The position numbers were made by a program, and so were the translations under genes. Positions 51,831 to 64,000 of a stretch of 64,000 bases of DNA are shown one piece after another. The stretch lies in NCBI GenBank assembly GCA_041687695.1, contig JAWLBL010000002.1:230761-294760 (forward strand), given 5' to 3'. The first letter of the stretch is position 1, and each line of letters begins with the position of its first letter. Source of the stretch: Myxococcota bacterium (GTDB taxonomy: Bacteria > Myxococcota_A > UBA9042 > PHBI01 > JAWLBL01). The notes under the pieces were generated by a model. That model did no database searches and had not been told where the DNA came from. It saw only the letters and a program-made list of their open reading frames with translations.

Positions 51831-54800
51831 ATGCTGCGTCGTAGCCAGGGTTCGAACCGTCCGCTGTGGGTGGACGGGGCGCTCAGATTTGGTCTCGCGT
51901 GTCTCGTCGCTGGCGCCGTGCTGGCGCAGCCGTGGCAGGCGCTGGCCGAATGCGGCGACTCGGTCGTCGACGACGGCGAGGACTGCGACGGCGGCGGCGT
52001 CGACACGGTCGACTGCAACGCGGACTGCACGGCCGTGTCTTGCGGCGACGGCTACACCAACACCGAGGCCGGCGAGGCCTGCGACGACGGCGGCGTCGAC
52101 ACCGCCGGCTGCAACGCGGACTGCACGGCCGTGTCTTGCGGCGACGGCTACACGAACACCGCGGCGGGCGAGGCCTGCGACGACGGCGGCGTCGACACCG
52201 CCGGCTGCAACGCGGACTGCACGGCCGTGTCGTGCGGCGACGGCTACACGAACACCGCGGCGGGCGAGGACTGCGACGACGGCGGCGTCGACACCGCCGG
52301 CTGCAACGCGGACTGCACGGCCGCCAGCTGCGGCGACGGCTACACGAACACCGAGGCGGGCGAGGCCTGCGACGACGGCGGCGACACCGCCGCGTGCAAC
52401 GGCGACTGCACGCTGCCCGAGTGCGGGGACGGGTATTGGAACGAGGCCGCGGGCGAGGGCTGCGACGATGGCGCCGAGACGGCCAGCTGCAACGCGGACT
52501 GCACGGTCGCCGAGTGCGGCGACGGCCTTGTGAACGCCGAGGCCGGAGAGACCTGCGACGACGGCAACGCCGGTGGCGGCGACGGGTGCTCGGACGCGTG
52601 CGTGGCCGAGACGGGCTTCGAGTGCCCGACGCCCGGCGAGGCGTGCACGTCCATCTGCGGTGACGGAGTGGTCGTGACCGGCGAGGCCTGCGACGACGGC
52701 GTGGGCAACGGCACGGGCGAGGGCAAGTGCCTGAGCGACTGCTCGGGCGTGCAGACCTGCGGCGACGGCAAGCTCGAGGGCACCGAGGCGTGCGAGACGT
52801 CGGGCGACTCGGCCGGGTGCAACGCGGACTGCACCCTGCCGGCCTGCGGCGACGGTCACCTCAACCTGGCGGCGGGCGAGGTCTGCGACGACGGCAACAC
52901 GGTCGGCGGCGACGGCTGCCGCGCGGACTGCCTGGGCGAGGAGGAGTGCGGCGACGGCCTGGTCGACGTGGGCGAGGCCTGCGACGACGGGGGCACCAGC
53001 GGCGGCGACGGCTGCACGGGGAGCTGCCAGCTCGAGGCGGGCTACACCTGCGACGGCGCGCCGACCGTGTGCGTGGCGTCGTGCGGCGTCGACTACGGCT
53101 TCGACGGCGGCGACCACAACTGGGTCGTCGGCGGGAGCGCGGCGGGCGCCTTCGAGTACGGCGCGAGCACCTTCCCAGGGGTGGCCGGGGGCGGGGTCGG
53201 CTTCGAGACGGCCCTGAACGCGGACCTGCCGGCGGGCGCGGTGGACACGTGGGTGCGCGGCCAGGTGCGCGTGCCGGCGGCGAGCAACGCGACCAAGACC
53301 GAGCTGGTCCTGAGCTACGCGCTCGAGGGCAACGGCGCCGACGGCTGCGTGACGGTCTACGTGAACGACGACGGCTCGACCGCCTCGGGGCAGGTCCATC
53401 AGGACTGCGCGACCAGCGCCGGGACCGTCGAGGCGGTGGTCGACCTCAGCGCCCACGCGGGCACCAGCCGCTTCATCGTGGTGCGCTTCCAGGCCAGCGA
53501 CTCCGAGGGCTTCGCCGGCCTGTTCCTGGACCGGGTCGCGGTGCGCGCGGACGAGGACGGCGACGGCGTGTGGGAGTTCGAGCCGCAGGCCGCCTGCGAC
53601 AAGTGCGTCGACAAGGACGACGACGGCTACGGGCACGCCAGCAGCCACGACCTGGCCAGCTGCTCCGCGGGGGCGACCGCCGACTGCAACGACGCGGTGG
53701 CGGCGATCCATCCGGGCGCGACGGAGATCTGCGACAACACGGCCGACGACGACTGTGACGGCCAGGTCGACCTGGCGGACGCCAACTGCAAGGAGGACTG
53801 CACCAACGGCGTGGACGACGGCGGCAACGGCCTCGTCGACTGCCAGGACGTCTTCTGCGCGGCCGACGCCTTCTGCGACCCCTGCCAGCGCGAGTGGACG
53901 TTCACGACCGGCCCCGGCAAGTGGACCAGCGACAACGCGACCCTGTGGCAGTACCTGCCGACGTACAGCGGCGACGGCCCGAACGATGGCGTCTGGAAGA
54001 CCGGCGGAACCGAGACGGTGCGCGACGCCTTCGGCGGCAACGGCACCTACACGGGGCGGGTGAACCTGCAGCTCGAGGTGCCCGCCATCGCCGAGGGCGG
54101 CCCCAAGCCGACCCTGGTCGTGCGCTTCCGCCACCAGGGCGACTCGGGCAACAACACCGACGTCTTCGGCGTGTGCATCAACCACGCGACCTGCACCTTC
54201 AACAGCACCAGCGTCGTCTACAAGCGCGCGACCCCCACCGGCGGCAGCTACATCAACTCGGACCCCATCGATCTGAGCGCCTACATCGGCCAGACCATCA
54301 CGCTGTCGCTGCTGTACGACACGGTCAACTCGAACCAGAACGACAACCACGGCGTCACGGTCAGCGCGGTGCGCCTGTTCTCGGACGCCGACGGCGACGA
54401 GCTGTTCGAGGGCCCCGACGTCGCCTGCGACCCCTGCTGGGACGTGGACGCCGACGGCTACGGCCACCCGCTCAGCCCGGATCTGGCCGCCTGTCCCTTC
54501 GTGCAGCCCGACTGCGACGACGGCGTGCTGGCCATCAACCCGGGCGCGACCGAGGTCTGTAACACCCCCGAGGACGACGACTGCGACGGCCTCGTCAACG
54601 GCTTCGACGACGACTGCGGCGTCGAGGACTGCGCCAACGGCAGCGACGACAACGGCGACGGCCTGGTGGACTGCGCCGACCCGGTCTGCGCCGGCGACCC
54701 CTGGTGCGCCATCTGCGGCCGCGAGTTCACCTTCACGACCGGCGGGGGCGGCTGGGTGGCCTCGGACAACGACCCGGACGCGAACGCCGGGACGCAGGTC

Positions 54801-57800
54801 TTCCAGTGGGGCACCAACACGGCCGAGGCGGACGCCGGCTGGGAGACCATGCTCAACGCCAACGTCTCCACGGCCGGCAGCGGGCGCGTCCTGGCCCACC
54901 TGGCGCGCAGCGTCTTCGTGCCGACGACCATGCCGGCCCCGGCCCTCGAGATCACCTACCGCCTGACCGGCGAGCCCAACGTCGCCAAGGACATCTTCGG
55001 CGTCTGCCTCGACAAGACGACCAGCCAGTGCGACGCGACCCAGGCCGCCAACGTGGCCTTCCAGACGGGCACCAACACCCCGGTCGGGCCGACGCTTTCT
55101 AAGGCCATCGTGCCCATCCCCGACGCGCGCAAGGGCAGCACCCTGGGCATCGTCCTGTTCTACGACACGCTCGACGGCTCGCAGAACGCCACGCCGGGCG
55201 TGTTCATCGCCTCGGTCACGCTGCGCAGCGACATGGACGGCGACGGCCACTTTGAAAACGCGGACGCCAGCTGCGACCACTGCCTCGACGCGGACGGCGA
55301 CGGCTACGGGGACGCCTCCAACCCCTTCAACGATCTCAACGCCTGCCCGTTCGCCATCGCCGACTGCGACGACGCCGACCCCGACACCCACCCGGGCCAC
55401 GCGCAAGAGGTGTGCGGCGATCCGCTCGGCAAGGACAACGACTGCAACGGCAAGGCCGACCTCGAGGAGACCGTCTGCTCGAGCTGCGGCAACGGCATCG
55501 TCGAGGCGGGCGAGACCTGCGACGACGGGCCGGGCGGCGCCCAGGACGTCGACGGCGACGGCTGCTCGACCACCTGCCAGACCGAGCCGGGCGCCATCTA
55601 CATCACCGAGATCCACGTGCCCAAGCCGGGCGGCAACCCGGGCGAGCAGTGGATCGAGATCTACAACTCGTCGCCGGGCCCGATCGACCTGGTCTCGCTC
55701 GATCTCCGCATCAAGAACCTGGTCGGCGTGACGCAGTCCTTCGTGAACGACTGCACGCCCATCACCTCGACCGTCATCGCGGGCACCAGCTTCTACGTCA
55801 TCGGCTTCGGGCCGGCCCAGGCCTCCGACGGTCTGGGCCCGGACGCGACCTGCTCGAGCCTGCTGCAGCTGTCCGAAGGCGGAGACCGCGTCGAGATCAG
55901 CGCGGCCGGCACGGTCGTCCTCGACGTGGTCGACTACTCGAGCTTCGGCTGCCACCTCGGCAACATGGTGACCGACGGCGTCGGCCGGTCGTTCGTCCTG
56001 ACCAACGCCACCGGCCGGTCGAACGCCACCAACGACTCGCCCAGCGTGTGGTGCCTCGCCGGCCCGACCGAGGACTACTCCGCGTCCGGCAAGCACCGCG
56101 GCTCGCCCAAGACGGTCGGGGGCTGCGCCGAGTTCGCCTGCGACGGCGTGGACGACGACTGCGACGCGACGACCGACGAGGCGCTGCCCGACGACGACGG
56201 CGACGGCGTGTGCAACCAGCAGGACTGCGCGCCGGCCAACGACAAGTGCGCCACGGACTGCTCGGACATCGATCTCGACGGGCTGCTCGACTGCGTCGAC
56301 GCGTGCATCGACGGCGACGGCGACGGCTACGGCGTCAGCTACCCCGAGCGCGGCGCCGGCGTGTGCCTGGGCACCGACTGCCGCGACGACAACGCCTTCG
56401 TCTTCCCCGGCGCGCCCGAGGCGACCGGGTCCGAGTTCAGCTGCGTCGACGGCATCGACAACGACTGCGACGGCCTCGTCGACTGCTCGGACACGGGCTG
56501 CTTCGACGAGCCGGCCTGCGCGGGCGAGATCTGCCAGGCGGCGGTCGACGTGGTCTGCGGCCAGAAGCTGCAGGTCCAGCCGGTGTTCAACGACTTCCCC
56601 TGCGGCTTCGGGGCCGACTACGTGCTGCGCTTCGTCGCGCCCAAGAGCGAGCAGGTCGTCTTCAAGCTCAACAACCTGGGTAAGCGCCAGTACGGCATGT
56701 CGGTCTTCGCCGACGGCTGCACCAACGGCCAGTGCTCGGGCAGCCTGCTGACCTTCGGCTCCGGCTGCACCAACGGCGGCAGCGACGCCATCAACGCGGT
56801 CGAGGGGACCGAGTACTTCCTGGTGGTCGACGAGGTCGACACCTGCAGCCAGGGCGCCAGCACGGCGGTCGAGGTCACCGTGTCGTGCCAGGAGATCTGC
56901 GACTCCGGCGTCGACGAGGACGCCGACGGCTTCACCGACTGCGCCGACTCGCAGTGCGTGGGCGCGGCCAGCTGCGCCGGCGCCGACTACGACAAGGACG
57001 GCGTGTCCAACGCCGACGAGATCACCTGCGGCTCCGACCCGCTCAACAACCTGTCCAAGCCGACGCCGGACGACCTGCTCGACGTCGACCAGGACCAGGT
57101 CCTCAACTGCGTCGACCCCGACGACGACGGCGACGGCTTCTCGGACGCGGTCGAGGCCTCGCAGTGCCTGCTCAACCCCACGGCCAAGAACGACGCGACC
57201 ATCTACCCGGGCGCTCCAGAGACGCTCGACAGCTGCTCCAAGCCCAACCTCGACAACGACTGCAACGGCTACTACGACGCCACCGAGGCCAAGTGCGGCG
57301 CCAAGGAGACGAGCTGCGCCAACTTCATCGACGACGACGGTGACGGCCTGACCGACTGCGCGGACACGGACTGCGTGCCCAGCGTCGGCTGCTTCGACGT
57401 CGACTACGACGGCGACGGCGTCAGCAACGGCTTCGAGATCTACTGCAAGACCGACCCGGTCGACCCCAACAAGAAGCCCTCGGCCCAGGCCGCGTCCGAC
57501 ACCGACGGCGACGGCGTCCCCAACTGCGCCGACCTCGACGACGACGGCGACGACTTCTCGGACGTGGAAGAGCTGCTGTGCGGCAGTAACCCCCTCGACC
57601 CGAACTCGATCCCCGCCGACAACGACCAGGACGGCCAGTGCGACGCGGCCGACCCGGACGACGACAACGACGGCTTCCCCGACAGCATCGAGCAGGTCTG
57701 CAAGAGCGACAGCCTCGACCCGCTGTCGACGCCGCTCGACCCCGTCCACGACATCGATCAGGACGGCATCTGCAACGAGCAGGACACCGACGCCGACGGG

Positions 57801-60800
57801 GACGGCTGGACCAACAACATGGAGGCCGTCTGCGGGACCGATCCCCTGTCGGGCGCGTCGAACCCGGTCGCCAACGGCCTCGACGTCGACGGCGACGGGC
57901 TGTGTGACGCGCTCGACACCGACGACGACGGCGACGGCTGGTCGGATGAGAAGGAGATCCTGTGCGGCACCGACAAGAACAACGCCGACAGCGTGCCCAT
58001 CGACGCCAACGGTGACGGGATCTGCGACGTGCTCGACCAGGACGCCGACGGCGACGGGTGGAGCAACGCCGAGGAGGCGCTGTGCGGCACCGACCCGCTC
58101 GACGCCGGCAGCAACCCGACCGCCAACGGCCTGGACATGGACGGCGACAAGCTGTGCGACGAGGTCGACACCGACGACGACGGCGACGGCTGGTCGGACG
58201 TGCTCGAGGGCCAGTGCGAGAAGGACCCGAAGGACCCGCTCAGCGTGCCCGTCGACACCGACGGCGACGGTATCTGCAACACGCTCGACAACGACGACGA
58301 CAACGACGGCTGGCTCGACCCGATGGAGCTGCTGTGCGGCACCGATCCGCTCGCCGTCGACGACTTCCCGACGGACACCGACGGCGACGGCGTGTGCGAC
58401 ATGGTGGACGCCGACGCCGACCCCGACGGCGACGGCTGGGACACGGCGACCGAGACCTTCTGCGGGACCGACCCCAAGGACGCGGCCAGCACGCCGGTCG
58501 ACACCGACGGGGACGGGCTGTGTGACGCCAAGGACACCGACATCGACGACGACGGCTGGAGCAACGACGCCGAGGTCCAGTGCGGCACCGACCCGATGCT
58601 GGCCTCGGACGTGCCGGTCGACACGGACGGCGACTCGATCTGCGACGCCGTCGACACCGACGACGACGGCGACGGCATGCAGGACGCCGACGAGCTGCTG
58701 TGCGGCACCGACCCGCTCGACAAGAGCGTCAAGCCGCTCGAGATCGATCTGGTCGACACCGACGGCGACGGCCTGGCCAACTGCGTCGACGGCGACGACG
58801 ACGGCGACGGCCTGCCGGACGTGGCCGAGCAGGCCATCGGCTCGAGCCAGTACATCAAGGACAGCGACGGCGACGGGCTGCTCGACGGCGCCGAGGACGC
58901 CAACCAGAACGGCGTGGTCGACGAGGGCGAGACCTCGCCCGTCCTCAAGGACACGGACAGCGACGGGCTGGACGACGGCCTCGAGGCCGCCAGCTGCTAC
59001 GCCGGGGTCGGCGACGCCCCCTGCGCGCCCAGCCTGGGCTGGGTCGCGGACACGGACGGCGACGGCCTGAGCGACGGGCAGGAGGACAAGAACCGCAACG
59101 GCAAGACCGACCCGGGCGAGACGTCGCCGCTGGTGGCGGACACCGACGGCGACGGCGCCAGCGACGGCGAGGAGGTCCTGTGCGCGACCGACCCGCTCGA
59201 TCCCGAGAGCTTCCCGGTCGACAAGGACCAGAACGGGATCTGCGACGGCAGCGAGAAGGACACCGACGGCGACGGCATCGCCGACGGGGTCGAGGTCTTC
59301 TGCGGGACCGATCCCAAGGACCTGGACTCCGTGCCCAGCCTGACGGATCTCGACGACTTCGACGGCGACGGCGTCATCAACTGCGCCGACGGCGACGACG
59401 ACGACGACGGCGTGCCGGACACCGACGAGCTGATCTGCGGCTACGACCCGCGCGACGGGACGGACAAGCCGACCGCGGTCGAGATCGCGGACAAGGACGG
59501 CGACGGCCAGCTCAACTGCGTGGACACCGACGACGACGGCGACGGACTGAGCGACGCCAAGGAGGCCGAGCTGGGGACCGACCCGCTGGACATGGACACC
59601 GACGACGACGGCATCCCGGACGGCCAGGAGGTCACGCTGGGCACCGACCCGAAGAAGGCGGACACCGACGGCGACGGCCTGCAGGACGGGACCGAGTTCG
59701 GCCTGACCAGCGGCACGGTCGACACCGACCCCGACAAGTTCCAGCCGGACCTGGATCCGACCACCACCACCGATCCCAAGAAGGCGGACACCGACGGTGA
59801 CGGCCTCAAGGACGGCGAGGAGGACGCCAACGGCAACGGGCGCATCGACGACGGCGAGGGCGACCCGCTCGACCCGAGCGACGGCCTGGCCGACACCGAC
59901 GGCGACGGCCTCATCGACCGCGACGAGGTCCACAAGTGGAACACGGACCCGCAGAAGAAGGACACCGACGGCGACGGGCTCGACGACAAGCTCGAGGTGG
60001 ACGTGTACTTCACCGACCCGCTGGATCCCGACACCGACAAGGGTGGCGTGTACGACGGCATCGAGGTCGAAAACGGCACGGATCCGGCCGACGGCGAAGA
60101 CGACTTCGACACGGCGGTGCTCAGCGGTGACAACGTCTTCGGCTGCGGCGGCGGCCAGGGGGCGGGGCCGGGGACCTGGCTGCTGGTCCTGCTGGTCGGG
60201 CTGGGGCTGGCGCTGCGGCGCCGGACGCGGCGCGTGGCGGCGATCGCCCTGTTGGCGACGTCGGCGGCGACGGCGGGCCCGAGCGGCGAGGCGCTGGCCC
60301 AGGCGCCCGCGGTCGGCAACGTGAACATCCAGGCCTTCACGCCGGCGGGCGGCCGCTACCGCGTGTGGTCGGTCGAGGAGTCGATCGTCGGCCCGGCGTG
60401 GACGCCCTTCGGCAGCCTCATCTTCCACGGCGAGCACGACAGCCTGCGGCTGCGCGCCGGCCGGCACGAGGAGCGCCTGGTCGCCGCGCAGCAGGTGGCC
60501 GACCTCAACATCGGCCTAGGGCTGTTCGACGGCCTGCAGGCCGAGCTGAACATCCCCTTCGTCGTCAGCATGGAGAGCGACGAGGACACGACCTCGATCG
60601 CCCCCGTCAGCGGCGGGGGCCTGGCCGACATGGCGCTGCGCGTCCGCGGCCGCATCCTCAACAACCTGCTGGGCGGCTTCGGCCTGGGCCTGTCGGGCGG
60701 CGTGACCCTGCCGACAGGCGACGGCGCGTCCTTCCGCGGGGACCCGGGGGTCGGCGTCCTGGTCAACGCGATCGCGGACTATCGGACCCCGTCGGTGGTC

Positions 60801-61850
60801 CTGGCGGTCAACCTGGGCGCGCGCATCCGCACCGAGGACGCGGTGCTGCTCACCCGCACCTTCGGCAGCGAGCTGACCTACGGCGTCGGCGTCGAGACCC
60901 TGCTCGGCAACGACACGGTCACGCTGGCGACGGAGCTGTTCGGCCGCACCGACCTGTCGGACCCCTTCGGATCGCTCGAGAACTCGGGCCTCGAGCTGAT
61001 GTTCGGGCCCAAGTGGATGGTCGTGCCGGGGCTCAGCGTCCAGGCCGCGGCGGGCGCCGGCCTCGTGCAGGGCACCGGCACGCCGGACTTCCGGTTCGTC
61101 GCGGGGGTGCAGTGGGCGCCGCGCTTCGAGGACACCGACGGGGACGGCATCGCCGACGGCGAGGACCGCTGCCCGCTGGTGCCCGAGGACTTCGACGGGT
61201 ACGCCGACGCCGACGGCTGCCCCGACGAGGACAACGACGGCGACGGCATCCTGGACGTCAACGACAAGTGCCCGCTGCAGCCCGAGGACTTCAACGGCGT
61301 GGACGACCACGACGGCTGCCCCGACGCGCCGGACGTCTCGGACATGGACGGCGACGGCATCCCCGACCGCATCGACAAGTGCCCGAGCCTGCCCGAGACC
61401 TTCAACGGGCACCTCGACCAGGACGGCTGCCCCGACGAGCTGCCGCCGACCAACACGCAGCCCACCGGTCCGACGGTGCCGCCCGAGTGCCTGTTCGAGC
61501 TGAACCAGAAGGTGTTCTTCGTGAAGGGGGCGACGTCGCTCACGGACGAGGGCCGCGCCACGCTCGACGAGGTGGCCGAGGCCATCAAGGGCAACTATTT
61601 CATCACGACGGTGGCGGTGCAGGGCCACGCGGACGAGGAGGGCTCCGAGGTGGTCAACCTGAGCCTGTCCAAGCAGCGCGCGAAGGTGGTCGTCGACTAC
61701 CTGGTCGAGCGCGGCGTCGCGCGCGATCTGCTGCCGGCGCGCGGCTTCGGCGAGTCGAACCCCATCATCGACGAGCCCACCGAGGAGGCCTTCCGCCTCA
61801 ACCGACGCGTCGACTTCAAGGTCGAGCTCGGCGGCAAGTGCAGAGAGTAG
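51831..61850 (+). CDS. Giant surface protein (~3339 aa): Cys-rich repeats, beta-sandwich modules, lamin-tail-like domain, DxDGDG repeats, internal MYXO-CTERM-like segment, beta-barrel, TSP3, OmpA
   Basis: Signal ALA-E; CGDG...CDDG; IHPGATEIC; ITEI...WIEIYN; DTDGDG; GCGGG...LLVGLGLALRRRTRR; GTPDFRFVAGVQW; VQGHAD...NLSLSKQRA...GFGE...NRRVDF. Confidence 0.9.
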   Translation: MLRRSQGSNRPLWVDGALRFGLACLVAGAVLAQPWQALAECGDSVVDDGEDCDGGGVDTVDCNADCTAVSCGDGYTNTEAGEACDDGGVDTAGCNADCTAVSCGDGYTNTAAGEACDDGGVDTAGCNADCTAVSCGDGYTNTAAGEDCDDGGVDTAGCNADCTAASCGDGYTNTEAGEACDDGGDTAACNGDCTLPECGDGYWNEAAGEGCDDGAETASCNADCTVAECGDGLVNAEAGETCDDGNAGGGDGCSDACVAETGFECPTPGEACTSICGDGVVVTGEACDDGVGNGTGEGKCLSDCSGVQTCGDGKLEGTEACETSGDSAGCNADCTLPACGDGHLNLAAGEVCDDGNTVGGDGCRADCLGEEECGDGLVDVGEACDDGGTSGGDGCTGSCQLEAGYTCDGAPTVCVASCGVDYGFDGGDHNWVVGGSAAGAFEYGASTFPGVAGGGVGFETALNADLPAGAVDTWVRGQVRVPAASNATKTELVLSYALEGNGADGCVTVYVNDDGSTASGQVHQDCATSAGTVEAVVDLSAHAGTSRFIVVRFQASDSEGFAGLFLDRVAVRADEDGDGVWEFEPQAACDKCVDKDDDGYGHASSHDLASCSAGATADCNDAVAAIHPGATEICDNTADDDCDGQVDLADANCKEDCTNGVDDGGNGLVDCQDVFCAADAFCDPCQREWTFTTGPGKWTSDNATLWQYLPTYSGDGPNDGVWKTGGTETVRDAFGGNGTYTGRVNLQLEVPAIAEGGPKPTLVVRFRHQGDSGNNTDVFGVCINHATCTFNSTSVVYKRATPTGGSYINSDPIDLSAYIGQTITLSLLYDTVNSNQNDNHGVTVSAVRLFSDADGDELFEGPDVACDPCWDVDADGYGHPLSPDLAACPFVQPDCDDGVLAINPGATEVCNTPEDDDCDGLVNGFDDDCGVEDCANGSDDNGDGLVDCADPVCAGDPWCAICGREFTFTTGGGGWVASDNDPDANAGTQVFQWGTNTAEADAGWETMLNANVSTAGSGRVLAHLARSVFVPTTMPAPALEITYRLTGEPNVAKDIFGVCLDKTTSQCDATQAANVAFQTGTNTPVGPTLSKAIVPIPDARKGSTLGIVLFYDTLDGSQNATPGVFIASVTLRSDMDGDGHFENADASCDHCLDADGDGYGDASNPFNDLNACPFAIADCDDADPDTHPGHAQEVCGDPLGKDNDCNGKADLEETVCSSCGNGIVEAGETCDDGPGGAQDVDGDGCSTTCQTEPGAIYITEIHVPKPGGNPGEQWIEIYNSSPGPIDLVSLDLRIKNLVGVTQSFVNDCTPITSTVIAGTSFYVIGFGPAQASDGLGPDATCSSLLQLSEGGDRVEISAAGTVVLDVVDYSSFGCHLGNMVTDGVGRSFVLTNATGRSNATNDSPSVWCLAGPTEDYSASGKHRGSPKTVGGCAEFACDGVDDDCDATTDEALPDDDGDGVCNQQDCAPANDKCATDCSDIDLDGLLDCVDACIDGDGDGYGVSYPERGAGVCLGTDCRDDNAFVFPGAPEATGSEFSCVDGIDNDCDGLVDCSDTGCFDEPACAGEICQAAVDVVCGQKLQVQPVFNDFPCGFGADYVLRFVAPKSEQVVFKLNNLGKRQYGMSVFADGCTNGQCSGSLLTFGSGCTNGGSDAINAVEGTEYFLVVDEVDTCSQGASTAVEVTVSCQEICDSGVDEDADGFTDCADSQCVGAASCAGADYDKDGVSNADEITCGSDPLNNLSKPTPDDLLDVDQDQVLNCVDPDDDGDGFSDAVEASQCLLNPTAKNDATIYPGAPETLDSCSKPNLDNDCNGYYDATEAKCGAKETSCANFIDDDGDGLTDCADTDCVPSVGCFDVDYDGDGVSNGFEIYCKTDPVDPNKKPSAQAASDTDGDGVPNCADLDDDGDDFSDVEELLCGSNPLDPNSIPADNDQDGQCDAADPDDDNDGFPDSIEQVCKSDSLDPLSTPLDPVHDIDQDGICNEQDTDADGDGWTNNMEAVCGTDPLSGASNPVANGLDVDGDGLCDALDTDDDGDGWSDEKEILCGTDKNNADSVPIDANGDGICDVLDQDADGDGWSNAEEALCGTDPLDAGSNPTANGLDMDGDKLCDEVDTDDDGDGWSDVLEGQCEKDPKDPLSVPVDTDGDGICNTLDNDDDNDGWLDPMELLCGTDPLAVDDFPTDTDGDGVCDMVDADADPDGDGWDTATETFCGTDPKDAASTPVDTDGDGLCDAKDTDIDDDGWSNDAEVQCGTDPMLASDVPVDTDGDSICDAVDTDDDGDGMQDADELLCGTDPLDKSVKPLEIDLVDTDGDGLANCVDGDDDGDGLPDVAEQAIGSSQYIKDSDGDGLLDGAEDANQNGVVDEGETSPVLKDTDSDGLDDGLEAASCYAGVGDAPCAPSLGWVADTDGDGLSDGQEDKNRNGKTDPGETSPLVADTDGDGASDGEEVLCATDPLDPESFPVDKDQNGICDGSEKDTDGDGIADGVEVFCGTDPKDLDSVPSLTDLDDFDGDGVINCADGDDDDDGVPDTDELICGYDPRDGTDKPTAVEIADKDGDGQLNCVDTDDDGDGLSDAKEAELGTDPLDMDTDDDGIPDGQEVTLGTDPKKADTDGDGLQDGTEFGLTSGTVDTDPDKFQPDLDPTTTTDPKKADTDGDGLKDGEEDANGNGRIDDGEGDPLDPSDGLADTDGDGLIDRDEVHKWNTDPQKKDTDGDGLDDKLEVDVYFTDPLDPDTDKGGVYDGIEVENGTDPADGEDDFDTAVLSGDNVFGCGGGQGAGPGTWLLVLLVGLGLALRRRTRRVAAIALLATSAATAGPSGEALAQAPAVGNVNIQAFTPAGGRYRVWSVEESIVGPAWTPFGSLIFHGEHDSLRLRAGRHEERLVAAQQVADLNIGLGLFDGLQAELNIPFVVSMESDEDTTSIAPVSGGGLADMALRVRGRILNNLLGGFGLGLSGGVTLPTGDGASFRGDPGVGVLVNAIADYRTPSVVLAVNLGARIRTEDAVLLTRTFGSELTYGVGVETLLGNDTVTLATELFGRTDLSDPFGSLENSGLELMFGPKWMVVPGLSVQAAAGAGLVQGTGTPDFRFVAGVQWAPRFEDTDGDGIADGEDRCPLVPEDFDGYADADGCPDEDNDGDGILDVNDKCPLQPEDFNGVDDHDGCPDAPDVSDMDGDGIPDRIDKCPSLPETFNGHLDQDGCPDELPPTNTQPTGPTVPPECLFELNQKVFFVKGATSLTDEGRATLDEVAEAIKGNYFITTVAVQGHADEEGSEVVNLSLSKQRAKVVVDYLVERGVARDLLPARGFGESNPIIDEPTEEAFRLNRRVDFKVELGGKCRE
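52041..52420 (+). repeat. In-frame 96-bp tandem repeats (CGDGYTNTxAGEACDDGGVDTAGCNADCTAVS)
   Basis: Units begin at 52041, 52137, 52233, 52329 with near-identical DNA. Confidence 0.88.
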
Positions 61851-61959: not shown

Positions 61960-64000
61960 ATGTTGCGCATGGGTTGGATCGGCTGGTTGGCGCTCGCGCT
62001 CGTCGTGACGCAGGGGGCCTGTGGGGACATCGTGGCGCCGCCGGGCGAGGAGTCGGACGCCACCGGTGACACCGACAAGGACGCCACGGCCAACCGCCCG
62101 CCGGTCATCTCGCCGGTCAGCCCGCTCGACAAGCAGGTCGAGGGGGTGCTCATCGAGATCGAGCTGCAGGTGAGCGACCCCGACGACGACAAGGTCACGG
62201 TCACGGCGGCGGGGCTGCCCAACGGGGCGACCTTCGACGCGGCCAAGCGGCGCTTCGCGTGGACGCCGTCGGCCTCGACGGCCATGTACGGCGAGCCGAC
62301 CTCGGTGACGGTGACCTTCACGGCCAAGGACGACGGCGAGCCGCAGCAGAGCGACGAGCTGCAGCTGCAGATCGTCGTCTACAACGACCAGGACGGCGAC
62401 GGGATCCGCGACGAGGACGACGACGACCTCGACGGCGACGGGCTGACCAACGCCGAGGAGCTGGCGCTGGGCACCAAGGTCGAGGTCGACGACACCGACG
62501 GGGACAACGTCAAGGACGGCAACGACAACTGCCCGCTGACCAAGAACCAGGGGCAGAAGGACACGGACGCCGACGGGCGGGGCGACGACTGCGACCCCTG
62601 CCCGCTCGACGGGGACGACGACGCCGACGACGACGGGCACTGCGGCAACGTGGACAACTGCCCGGACGTGGCGAACGCCGACCAGAAGGACGACGACTCG
62701 GACGGCCAGGGCAACGCCTGCGACCCCTGGCCCACCGATCCCAACGACGACGCGGACGACGACGGCATCCCCGAGCCGGCCGACAACTGCCCGACGGTGG
62801 CCAACGCGGGGCAAGAGGACGCGGACGAGGACGGGATCGGGGACGCCTGCGACAGCTGCCCGGCCGACCCGCTGAACGACCAGGACAAGGATCTGGTCTG
62901 CGGTGACGTCGACAACTGCCCCGAGCACAACAACCCCAATCAGACCGACACCGACGAGGACGGCATCGGCGACGCCTGCGACACCTGCCCGAACCAGCCG
63001 GGCACGGATCTGGACGGCGACGGGGTGTGTGGCGACGACAACTGCCCGTCGGTGCCGAACGTCGACCAGAAGAACTCGGACGGCGACCTGCACGGCGACG
63101 TCTGCGACCCGTGCCCGTTCGACCCGAACGACGACGCGGACGACGACGGGGTCTGCGGCGACGTCGACGTCTGCCCCGAGGTGGCCGACGCGGGCCAGGA
63201 GGACGCGGACGAGGACGGAGTGGGCGACGCGTGCGACGCCTGCCCGCTCGACCCGAACAACGACGAGGACGCCGACGGGGTCTGCGGCGACGTGGACAAC
63301 TGCCCGACCGAGGCCAACGCCGACCAGGCGGACGTCGACGGCGACGGCCTGGGCGACGTCTGCGACCCGGACATCGACGGCGACGGCGTCCTCAACGGGG
63401 ACGACAACTGCCCCGCGGACGCGAACCCTGGCCAGCAGGACCTGGACGGGGACGGAAAGGGCGACGCGTGTGACGAGGACGCCGACGGCGACGGTGTCCT
63501 GGACGCTCAGGACAACTGCCCCGGCGTGGCCAACCCGACGCAGGTCGACGTCGACGGCGACGGGCTGGGCCTGGCCTGTGACGGTTGGGTCGACATCCCC
63601 AAGGTGATGCTGCCCGACTCGCCCTTCCTGGACGCGCTGGGCCACGCGCACGGCCGCACCGTGGCCTTGACGCTCTTCGGCGTGAACCCCTGCTCCGCCT
63701 TCCCCAGCGCCTGCGCCGACCCGACCTTGTTGGTCTTCGAGGGTGGCGAGTACTTCACGGGCCTGCCGGCCTACCTGCCCTTCGGACCGGACGGCGCCCT
63801 GGGGCAGCCGTTCGTCGGCCCCGACGAGGCGGCGTTCTTCCCCGCCCGCGACGGCAACGGCGGCTTCGCGCTCGACCGCGTCGTGGGCGGTGAGCTGGCC
63901 GAGGCCTTCGCCGACGAGATCTACAGCATCGCCAGCTTCGTCGCGGCCCCGAACGGCACGACCCTGGCGGCGGTCGACTACCAGGGCCGCGCGCTGCTGT
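61960..64000 (+). CDS. Thrombospondin type-3 repeat lipoprotein with Ig-like domain, runs off the window
   Basis: Not in the ORF track; manual reading MLRMGWIGWLALALVVTQGAC, NRPPVI...SDPD...GLPNGATFD...FAWTP, then many DNCPxxxNxDQxDxDxDGxGDAC units. Confidence 0.85.
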   Translation, partial: MLRMGWIGWLALALVVTQGACGDIVAPPGEESDATGDTDKDATANRPPVISPVSPLDKQVEGVLIEIELQVSDPDDDKVTVTAAGLPNGATFDAAKRRFAWTPSASTAMYGEPTSVTVTFTAKDDGEPQQSDELQLQIVVYNDQDGDGIRDEDDDDLDGDGLTNAEELALGTKVEVDDTDGDNVKDGNDNCPLTKNQGQKDTDADGRGDDCDPCPLDGDDDADDDGHCGNVDNCPDVANADQKDDDSDGQGNACDPWPTDPNDDADDDGIPEPADNCPTVANAGQEDADEDGIGDACDSCPADPLNDQDKDLVCGDVDNCPEHNNPNQTDTDEDGIGDACDTCPNQPGTDLDGDGVCGDDNCPSVPNVDQKNSDGDLHGDVCDPCPFDPNDDADDDGVCGDVDVCPEVADAGQEDADEDGVGDACDACPLDPNNDEDADGVCGDVDNCPTEANADQADVDGDGLGDVCDPDIDGDGVLNGDDNCPADANPGQQDLDGDGKGDACDEDADGDGVLDAQDNCPGVANPTQVDVDGDGLGLACDGWVDIPKVMLPDSPFLDALGHAHGRTVALTLFGVNPCSAFPSACADPTLLVFEGGEYFTGLPAYLPFGPDGALGQPFVGPDEAAFFPARDGNGGFALDRVVGGELAEAFADEIYSIASFVAAPNGTTLAAVDYQGRALL

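Follow-up and report, generated by a model that had tools for sequence, protein, structure and literature searches.

A giant myxobacterial gene joins an adhesin-like part to a TraB-like barrel through an internal MYXO-CTERM-type tag and a second signal-like segment

Results

One open frame spans an adhesin-like part and an outer-membrane barrel

We analyzed a window of 64,000 nucleotides from a Myxococcota bacterium (assembly GCA_041687695.1, contig JAWLBL010000002.1, positions 230,761 to 294,760 of the forward strand), which contains the giant gene and the features collected in Table 1. Consistent with the original prediction, which had read a single frame without a stop between an internal tag and a second signal peptide, the frame is open from either candidate start to its stop codon, with the tag and signal-like peptides where they had been placed. 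The third-position GC content was 1.0 across both the GCGGGQGAGPGTWLLVLLVGLGLALRRRTRR and the VAAIALLATSAATAGPSGEALA segment, indicating that the junction reads in the coding frame. A 15-residue hydropathy scan of the 3339 aa found three hydrophobic stretches only, at residues 16, 2777, and 2802. The first is the N-terminal signal, the next belongs to the MYXO-CTERM-type tag, and the last is a second signal-like helix immediately ahead of the barrel-TSP3-OmpA module. This module makes up the last 516 aa, while the N-terminal extracellular part comprises about 2770 aa.

Table 1. Features of the giant gene and of the gene downstream of it, in window positions.
Feature	Position	Strand	Evidence or remark
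Giant gene, one open frame	51831-61850	+	3339 aa from ATG 51831; 3346 aa from GTG 51810
First signal peptide	51831..51947	+	Hydrophobic stretch at residue 16; alternative start GTG 51810
First signal peptide, predicted cut after W-Q-A-L-A, residue 39	within 51831..51947	+	Inferred from A-x-A rule
Cys-rich acidic repeats (myxo_disulf_rpt, DUF4215-like)	51948..53081	+	TIGR02232, 120 bits (cut-off 20.8)
Three non-repetitive modules of unknown family, MopE-type and acidic double-disulfide repeats, lamin-tail-like domain	53082..56981	+	NF033662; PF11617 and PF00932 below cut-off
Lamin-tail-like domain, weak	about 55581-55940	+	PF00932 below cut-off
Asp-rich bacterial TSP3 repeats, about 1050 aa	56982..60140	+	PF18884, 132 bits, 16 stretches
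Internal MYXO-CTERM-type tag GCGGGQGAGPGTWLLVLLVGLGLALRRRTRR	60141-60233	+	Cys, Gly-rich linker, membrane helix, Arg cluster
Tag Cys	60144-60146	+	
Arg cluster RRRTRR	60216-60233	+	
Second signal-peptide-like segment VAAIALLATSAATAGPSGEALA	60234-60299	+	Predicted signal peptidase I cut A-L-A|Q
Q after second signal-like segment	60300-60302	+	Q2824
TraB-like outer-membrane beta-barrel, FapF/COG4313 fold	60300..61121	+	
Thrombospondin type 3 repeats	61128..61460	+	PF02412, 34 bits
OmpA-like peptidoglycan-binding domain	61497..61823	+	PF00691, 62-66 bits
Stop codon of giant gene	61848-61850	+	
Next gene, predicted lipoprotein, Ig and TSP3 repeats	61960..64000, runs on to contig position 296280	+	PF05345, PF02412

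Within the extracellular part, the region between the Cys-rich repeats and the long Asp-rich repeat tract is likely the binding part of the adhesin, and the tract itself is predicted to form a calcium-binding stalk. Profile searches of the putative binding region yielded no match to a TraA or AgmC model, and a comparison of the adhesin middle with solved structures returned a single weak match of 30 residues, with all Atlas leads below 0.9. The final 116 aa ahead of the tag Cys are conserved in unfused as well as fused relatives (alignment A3) and form a candidate docking part.

The internal tag resembles terminal tags of the same genome

The tag consists of the Cys motif, the hydrophobic helix, and the Arg cluster that characterize MYXO-CTERM, and the gene has an N-terminal signal peptide in a genome that encodes one myxosortase-core gene (NF040914, 128.9 bits; cut-off 100) and a GspD type II secretin (TIGR02517, 478 bits; cut-off 351). 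It departs from the family in its position, as 539 aa come after it. Upon scoring the junction with the MYXO-CTERM model TIGR03901, a check that had been proposed along with the prediction, we found the motif in place but a score of 17-19 bits, below the curated cut-off of 20. Of 36 clearly terminal control tags from the same genome, 28 likewise were not flagged above this cut-off, and many plainly terminal tags score 13-19.5 bits. The tag Cys is invariant in alignments A2, A3, and A4, and five paralog loci (L033-L037) have this pre-Cys motif, the helix, and the Arg cluster as well, with a stop after them. Elsewhere in the window, a metalloprotease-like secreted protein (42206 to about 43720, minus strand) ends in an ordinary terminal MYXO-CTERM of 16.6 bits. 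Experimentally, myxosortase has been demonstrated on terminal tags only, and part of TraA gets to the surface without it (PMC11980579).

The joint is kept among relatives, and fused and split forms alternate

Since the assembly comes without supporting reads at the junction, and neither of two DNA contig sets (word shares of 0.09 and 0.05) spans it, the fusion might be an assembly error or reflect a stop codon recently lost in this genome alone. Relatives refute an assembly slip as a general explanation: about 90 fused joints occur over many genera of the class, and among the listed matches that cover the junction at E 5e-93 or better, 0 of 30 have a stop inside. We thus regard such an artifact or recent loss as extremely unlikely.

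A search with junction plus barrel among proteins of 1840-5856 aa gave 33 matches; as searches for long homologs select for fused forms, such counts do not tell what fraction of the family is fused. The order of Cys, Gly-rich linker, helix, Arg cluster, and second helix was found in all 31 non-self, barrel-bearing long homologs, and 89 of 107 genomes of the class contained a match. After merging the proteins with 31 loci into 67 rows and dropping 12 near-duplicates, the Cys-helix-Arg-helix joint was kept in 55 of 55 fused rows, 49 of which have an A-x-A behind the second helix. A scan of named genomes with a single protein yielded no match, while an alignment scan yielded 17 loci, in assemblies of uncultured Myxococcota or Deltaproteobacteria. 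In 14 of these 17 loci, homology extends over at least 1000 aa of the adhesin part, and in two (L131 and L134) the frame is interrupted upstream, with the joint in frame.

We classed by eye 60 further barrel loci, hand-picked from the best 150 of 377 matches. Thirty-five were fused, all via the tag-signal joint, and 25 were stand-alone barrels with their own start and signal; a direct fusion without a hairpin was absent from these 60. The split state can even be seen in frame, with a tag, a stop, a new ATG, a signal, and a barrel in L066 and L068. On a FastTree phylogeny of 121 barrels (88 fused, 33 alone), which is effectively unrooted and says nothing on which state came first, there are 13 changes of state, at least 9 of them forced by well-supported branches, and 4 stand-alone barrels are nested among 42 fused ones in the giant gene's clade of 46. 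Before the tree was built, L022 was left out for its stop within the barrel, L115 for being short, and L068 as a duplicate. The tree shows fused and split states to be interchangeable. Hence both of the homolog types that the original prediction had asked for, split and fused, exist, and the halves also occur as separate genes.

Some relatives deviate in detail. L022 (G050:C509), a fused homolog from an assembly that is 67% complete, has a TAG stop about 12 codons after the barrel begins. Five fused relatives (P0018, P0022-P0024, and P0026) have only about 385 aa past the signal, with no OmpA domain on record. L031 and L032 (G042:C5 and G040:C279) are three-gene arrays in which a short stand-alone barrel gene is followed by two giant fused paralogs.

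The second helix has the properties of a signal peptide

The second helix carries the features of a signal peptidase I substrate as judged by a heuristic: a basic n-region, a hydrophobic core, and an A-x-A. Its best 8-residue hydropathy is 2.94 with an A-x-A, comparable to the signals of stand-alone barrels. Using a signal-like score of our own (best 8-residue hydropathy of at least 2.2 plus a downstream A-x-A, a threshold chosen after the data were seen), we found that 49 of 55 and 31 of 35 fused joints passed, as did 19 of 25 true stand-alone barrel signals, compared to 4 of 108 read-through frames behind the 36 terminal tags of this genome. Fused and stand-alone signals showed no difference in hydropathy (p 0.15, with related genomes that are not independent), and the helix lies in the same register as the signals of the stand-alone barrels P0037, P0039, and P0040. 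Among 16 close relatives, identity was 0.31 in the second signal versus 0.55 in the barrel, indicating that signal properties are kept while the letters drift.

Alternatively, translation could start anew near the junction and make the barrel on its own, with the in-frame join being incidental. A GTG indeed comes after the Arg cluster in the giant gene, and an ATG is present at the Arg cluster in 11 of 49 joints, but a ribosome-site-like motif was found in 0 of the 49 joints checked for such starts, and a start at the GTG would leave the second signal without a basic n-region. Upon comparing the same span, 17-42 codons ahead of the barrel, in both classes, we found a start codon with a ribosome-site-like motif in 3 of 66 fused versus 21 of 25 stand-alone barrels, which argues that the barrel does not come from an internal start. 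We therefore rejected this explanation as highly improbable. Together with the helix score and the register, the lack of an internal start supports the proposed topology, in which the Arg cluster would double as stop-transfer signal and as n-region of the second signal peptide.

The barrel resembles, but is distinct from, TraB and FapF

Profile searches and an AlphaFold2 model confirmed that the last part of the protein comprises a beta-barrel, TSP3 repeats, and an OmpA domain, as had been predicted. The barrel model, based on an alignment of 89 sequences, reached a pLDDT of 95.8, and Foldseek placed it near FapF (E 7e-9, TM 0.65) and a COG4313 channel (TM 0.69) among solved folds. These outer-membrane channels, FapF and COG4313 (Pput2725), are the nearest solved folds to the barrel but differ from it in sequence, with 14-15% identity, as well as in context, as the barrel here carries TSP3 and OmpA domains and occurs without an amyloid operon.

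With the amyloid secretion channel FapF as nearest solved fold, it is conceivable that the chain stays unprocessed at the joint and that, similar to an autotransporter, the FapF-like barrel serves to export or hold the N-terminal part of its own chain. We consider this quite implausible. The barrel begins a few residues past the second helix, such that without a cut it would be held at the inner membrane; the barrel tree shows fused and split forms replacing one another; and the same joint also precedes lipoproteins, proteases, and further tagged units without a barrel.

The last part of the giant gene has the TraB order of barrel, TSP3, and OmpA, and 89 of 89 members of the barrel alignment match NF033763 (TraB). 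The last 538 aa, however, score 150 bits with this model, short of its cut-off of 700, and the best score in the genome, which contains eight TraB-like barrels, is 176, also under 700. Like the TraA/TraB exchange pair, the giant gene combines a Cys-rich tagged surface protein with a barrel-TSP3-OmpA partner, but TraA and TraB are encoded by separate overlapping genes, compared to the one frame here (PMC6372800, PMC12045341). The giant protein has no match to the TraA model and contains neither an SCNCCP motif nor a CC, and a search of the genome for a PA14-like domain gave no PF07691 match, where TraA's own domain is only a distant PA14 relative. We therefore rejected membership in the TraA/TraB families. 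Of the likeness to TraA/TraB that had been pointed out, the similar design stands, while the halves are not members of those families, and kin recognition or outer-membrane exchange is hence not to be assumed.

Discussion

Our data show that the layout is real and common in relatives. The original prediction could not say whether the architecture had been described; it was in print already, in 2025, for MXAN_5598 of Myxococcus xanthus, which consists of an adhesin region, an internal MYXO-CTERM, an outer-membrane barrel, and an OmpA domain (Guo, Haft and Wall, mBio 2025, PMC11980579). The authors liken MXAN_5598 to TraA plus TraB, perhaps a fusion, propose that its N-terminal part is processed and surface-anchored, and call internal MYXO-CTERM tags rare (PMC11980579). 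The giant gene has the same layout in one frame, as compared with the published description, but the two differ in their neighborhoods: MXAN_5598 (2699 aa) adjoins ftsA/ftsZ, whereas the giant gene lies between fumarase/lipoprotein genes and the TSP3 lipoprotein gene. The N-terminal part of the giant gene gave no match to an AgmC-named model. The passages that describe MXAN_5598 do not mention a second signal peptide or the barrel's exit from the cytoplasm (PMC11980579). In a literature search outside most subscription journals, we found 'internal MYXO-CTERM' in PMC11980579 only and no printed description of the tag-plus-second-signal joint; the available text of the Haft preprint (10.1101/2023.06.07.544157) does not contain 'internal', 'OmpA', 'fused', or 'polyprotein'. 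Because the layout is published and common, the gain for the giant gene alone is modest. The description of MXAN_5598 leaves a topology problem, however, as a barrel past a stop-transfer helix would be cytoplasmic, which the conserved second signal solves.

We propose that the giant gene quite probably encodes one precursor that signal peptidase I and myxosortase cleave to give an adhesin with a lipid anchor and a barrel tethered to the cell wall. The first signal would begin Sec export, after which the MYXO-CTERM helix would halt transfer with the Arg cluster staying in the cytoplasm, and the second helix would restart export. The result would be a hairpin in the membrane, its two ends periplasmic and the Arg cluster forming the shared cytoplasmic loop. 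Signal peptidase I would then cut at A-L-A|Q and release the 516-aa barrel for insertion by BAM, whereupon its OmpA domain would bind peptidoglycan, while the Cys would be lipidated, myxosortase would cut behind it, and the type II secretion system would carry the adhesin of about 2730 aa to the surface. Adhesin and barrel would thereby form a TraA/TraB-like adhesin-anchor pair made 1:1. We deduce these steps from what is established about Sec, signal peptidase, BAM, and OmpA, as well as from the model for MrtX (PMC11980579). That the two halves may act as 1:1 partners follows by analogy: TraA and TraB act 1:1, and a model places the C-terminal part of TraA on the barrel (PMC12045341), which suggests why the fusion is kept. 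The downstream lipoprotein, a homolog of which directly follows the fused gene on its 3' side in 8 of the 17 loci from named relatives, may be a third component.

It is also conceivable, but unlikely, that there is one cut only, in which case signal peptidase I would free the barrel, and the adhesin would stay on an uncut inner-membrane helix or be shed by another protease. The score of the tag under the TIGR03901 cut-off fits this, as does the surface location of some TraA without myxosortase (PMC11980579), and the hairpin could hinder myxosortase. A repeat protein of 2700 aa would, however, be an unlikely resident of the periplasm, and the tag has an invariant Cys in all three alignments and a terminal counterpart in paralogs. 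One membrane sample and three vesicle samples were reported to contain an MXAN_5598 peptide from the N-terminal half, residues 741-755 of 2699 (PMC4158809); this fits delivery to the surface but is not proof of a cut. We hence favor the two-cut processing of the precursor. If it is true, each of thousands of 'giant OmpA proteins' would in fact be a pair of proteins, the fusions would indicate which adhesin pairs with which barrel, and bacteria would routinely make envelope proteins from polyproteins, as enveloped viruses do.

Internal signals that split a precursor are known from Bradyrhizobium FbcH (cytochrome b plus c1) and from enveloped-virus polyproteins with their anchor-plus-signal hairpins. 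Both resemble the giant gene in having a membrane anchor followed by a signal, at which signal peptidase cuts their chains into separate proteins, but differ from it in lacking a sortase-type tag. An archaeal ArtA substrate reportedly has a non-terminal tag.

Joints of this kind were found beyond the barrel fusion. A joint-only profile run against 1.84 billion representatives gave 40 matches, which we classed by eye: behind 15 of the joints lay a TraB-like barrel, behind 2 a truncated barrel start, and behind 17 another domain (metalloproteases, Ig-rich adhesins, DUF2330, small barrels), while 4 had PEP-CTERM replacing the Cys tag and 2 were unclear or noise. Among single predicted proteins, known from protein sequence alone, PEP-CTERM concatemers reached 10 tags in P0043, 6 in P0047, and 5 in P0063, and P0044 and P0050 had 4 Cys tags each. 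Within this genome, inspection of the best 47 of 60 tag matches revealed 4 internal tags followed by a signal-like segment, in the giant gene, a C28 barrel fusion, a C15 two-tag tandem, and a C13 gene with a lipoprotein signal. Relatives of the C13 gene (L044-L063) are, with the gene itself (L040), fused in 7 of 20 loci and split in at least 3, with the tag at the stop. No relative of the tandem L039 was found in 17 further genomes of its order, which makes it a single case.

We lean toward the view that a sorting tag followed by a signal peptide constitutes a general bacterial polyprotein joint. Sec would stop and restart via the Arg cluster, and a sortase and signal peptidases would cut; the joint would use signal peptidase I or lipoprotein signals, MYXO-CTERM or PEP-CTERM tags, and up to ten tags (P0043), such that surface-protein operons could collapse into single, stoichiometry-fixing genes.

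The individual cases vary in makeup. P0043, which derives from a Planctomycetales assembly, P0047, P0063, and P0074 carry 3 to 10 PEP-CTERM tags, and a signal-like segment comes after most of the internal ones. In P0044, P0049, P0050, P0055, P0056, and P0060, 2-3 internal Cys-tag-plus-signal joints link repeated secreted units. The C13 gene (G000:C13:138771-143075, plus strand) consists of two lipoprotein-like halves with a MYXO-CTERM-type tag and a lipoprotein signal linking them, and the type gave no Pfam match. The C15 tandem (G000:C15:197989-199806, minus strand) is a 606-codon frame with two MYXO-CTERM tags, of which the first is internal (27.1 bits) and followed by a signal. The second fused gene of the genome (L041, G000:C28:67568-78928, minus strand), with a frame of 3787 codons, encodes DUF11-like and TSP3 repeats, a Cys tag, an Arg cluster, a signal, a barrel, TSP3, and OmpA in this order, and its barrel belongs to another clade. 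At L042 (G000:C1:464104-471329, minus strand), the parts are split: a TSP3-rich protein with a terminal MYXO-CTERM is followed by two separate TraB-like barrel genes.
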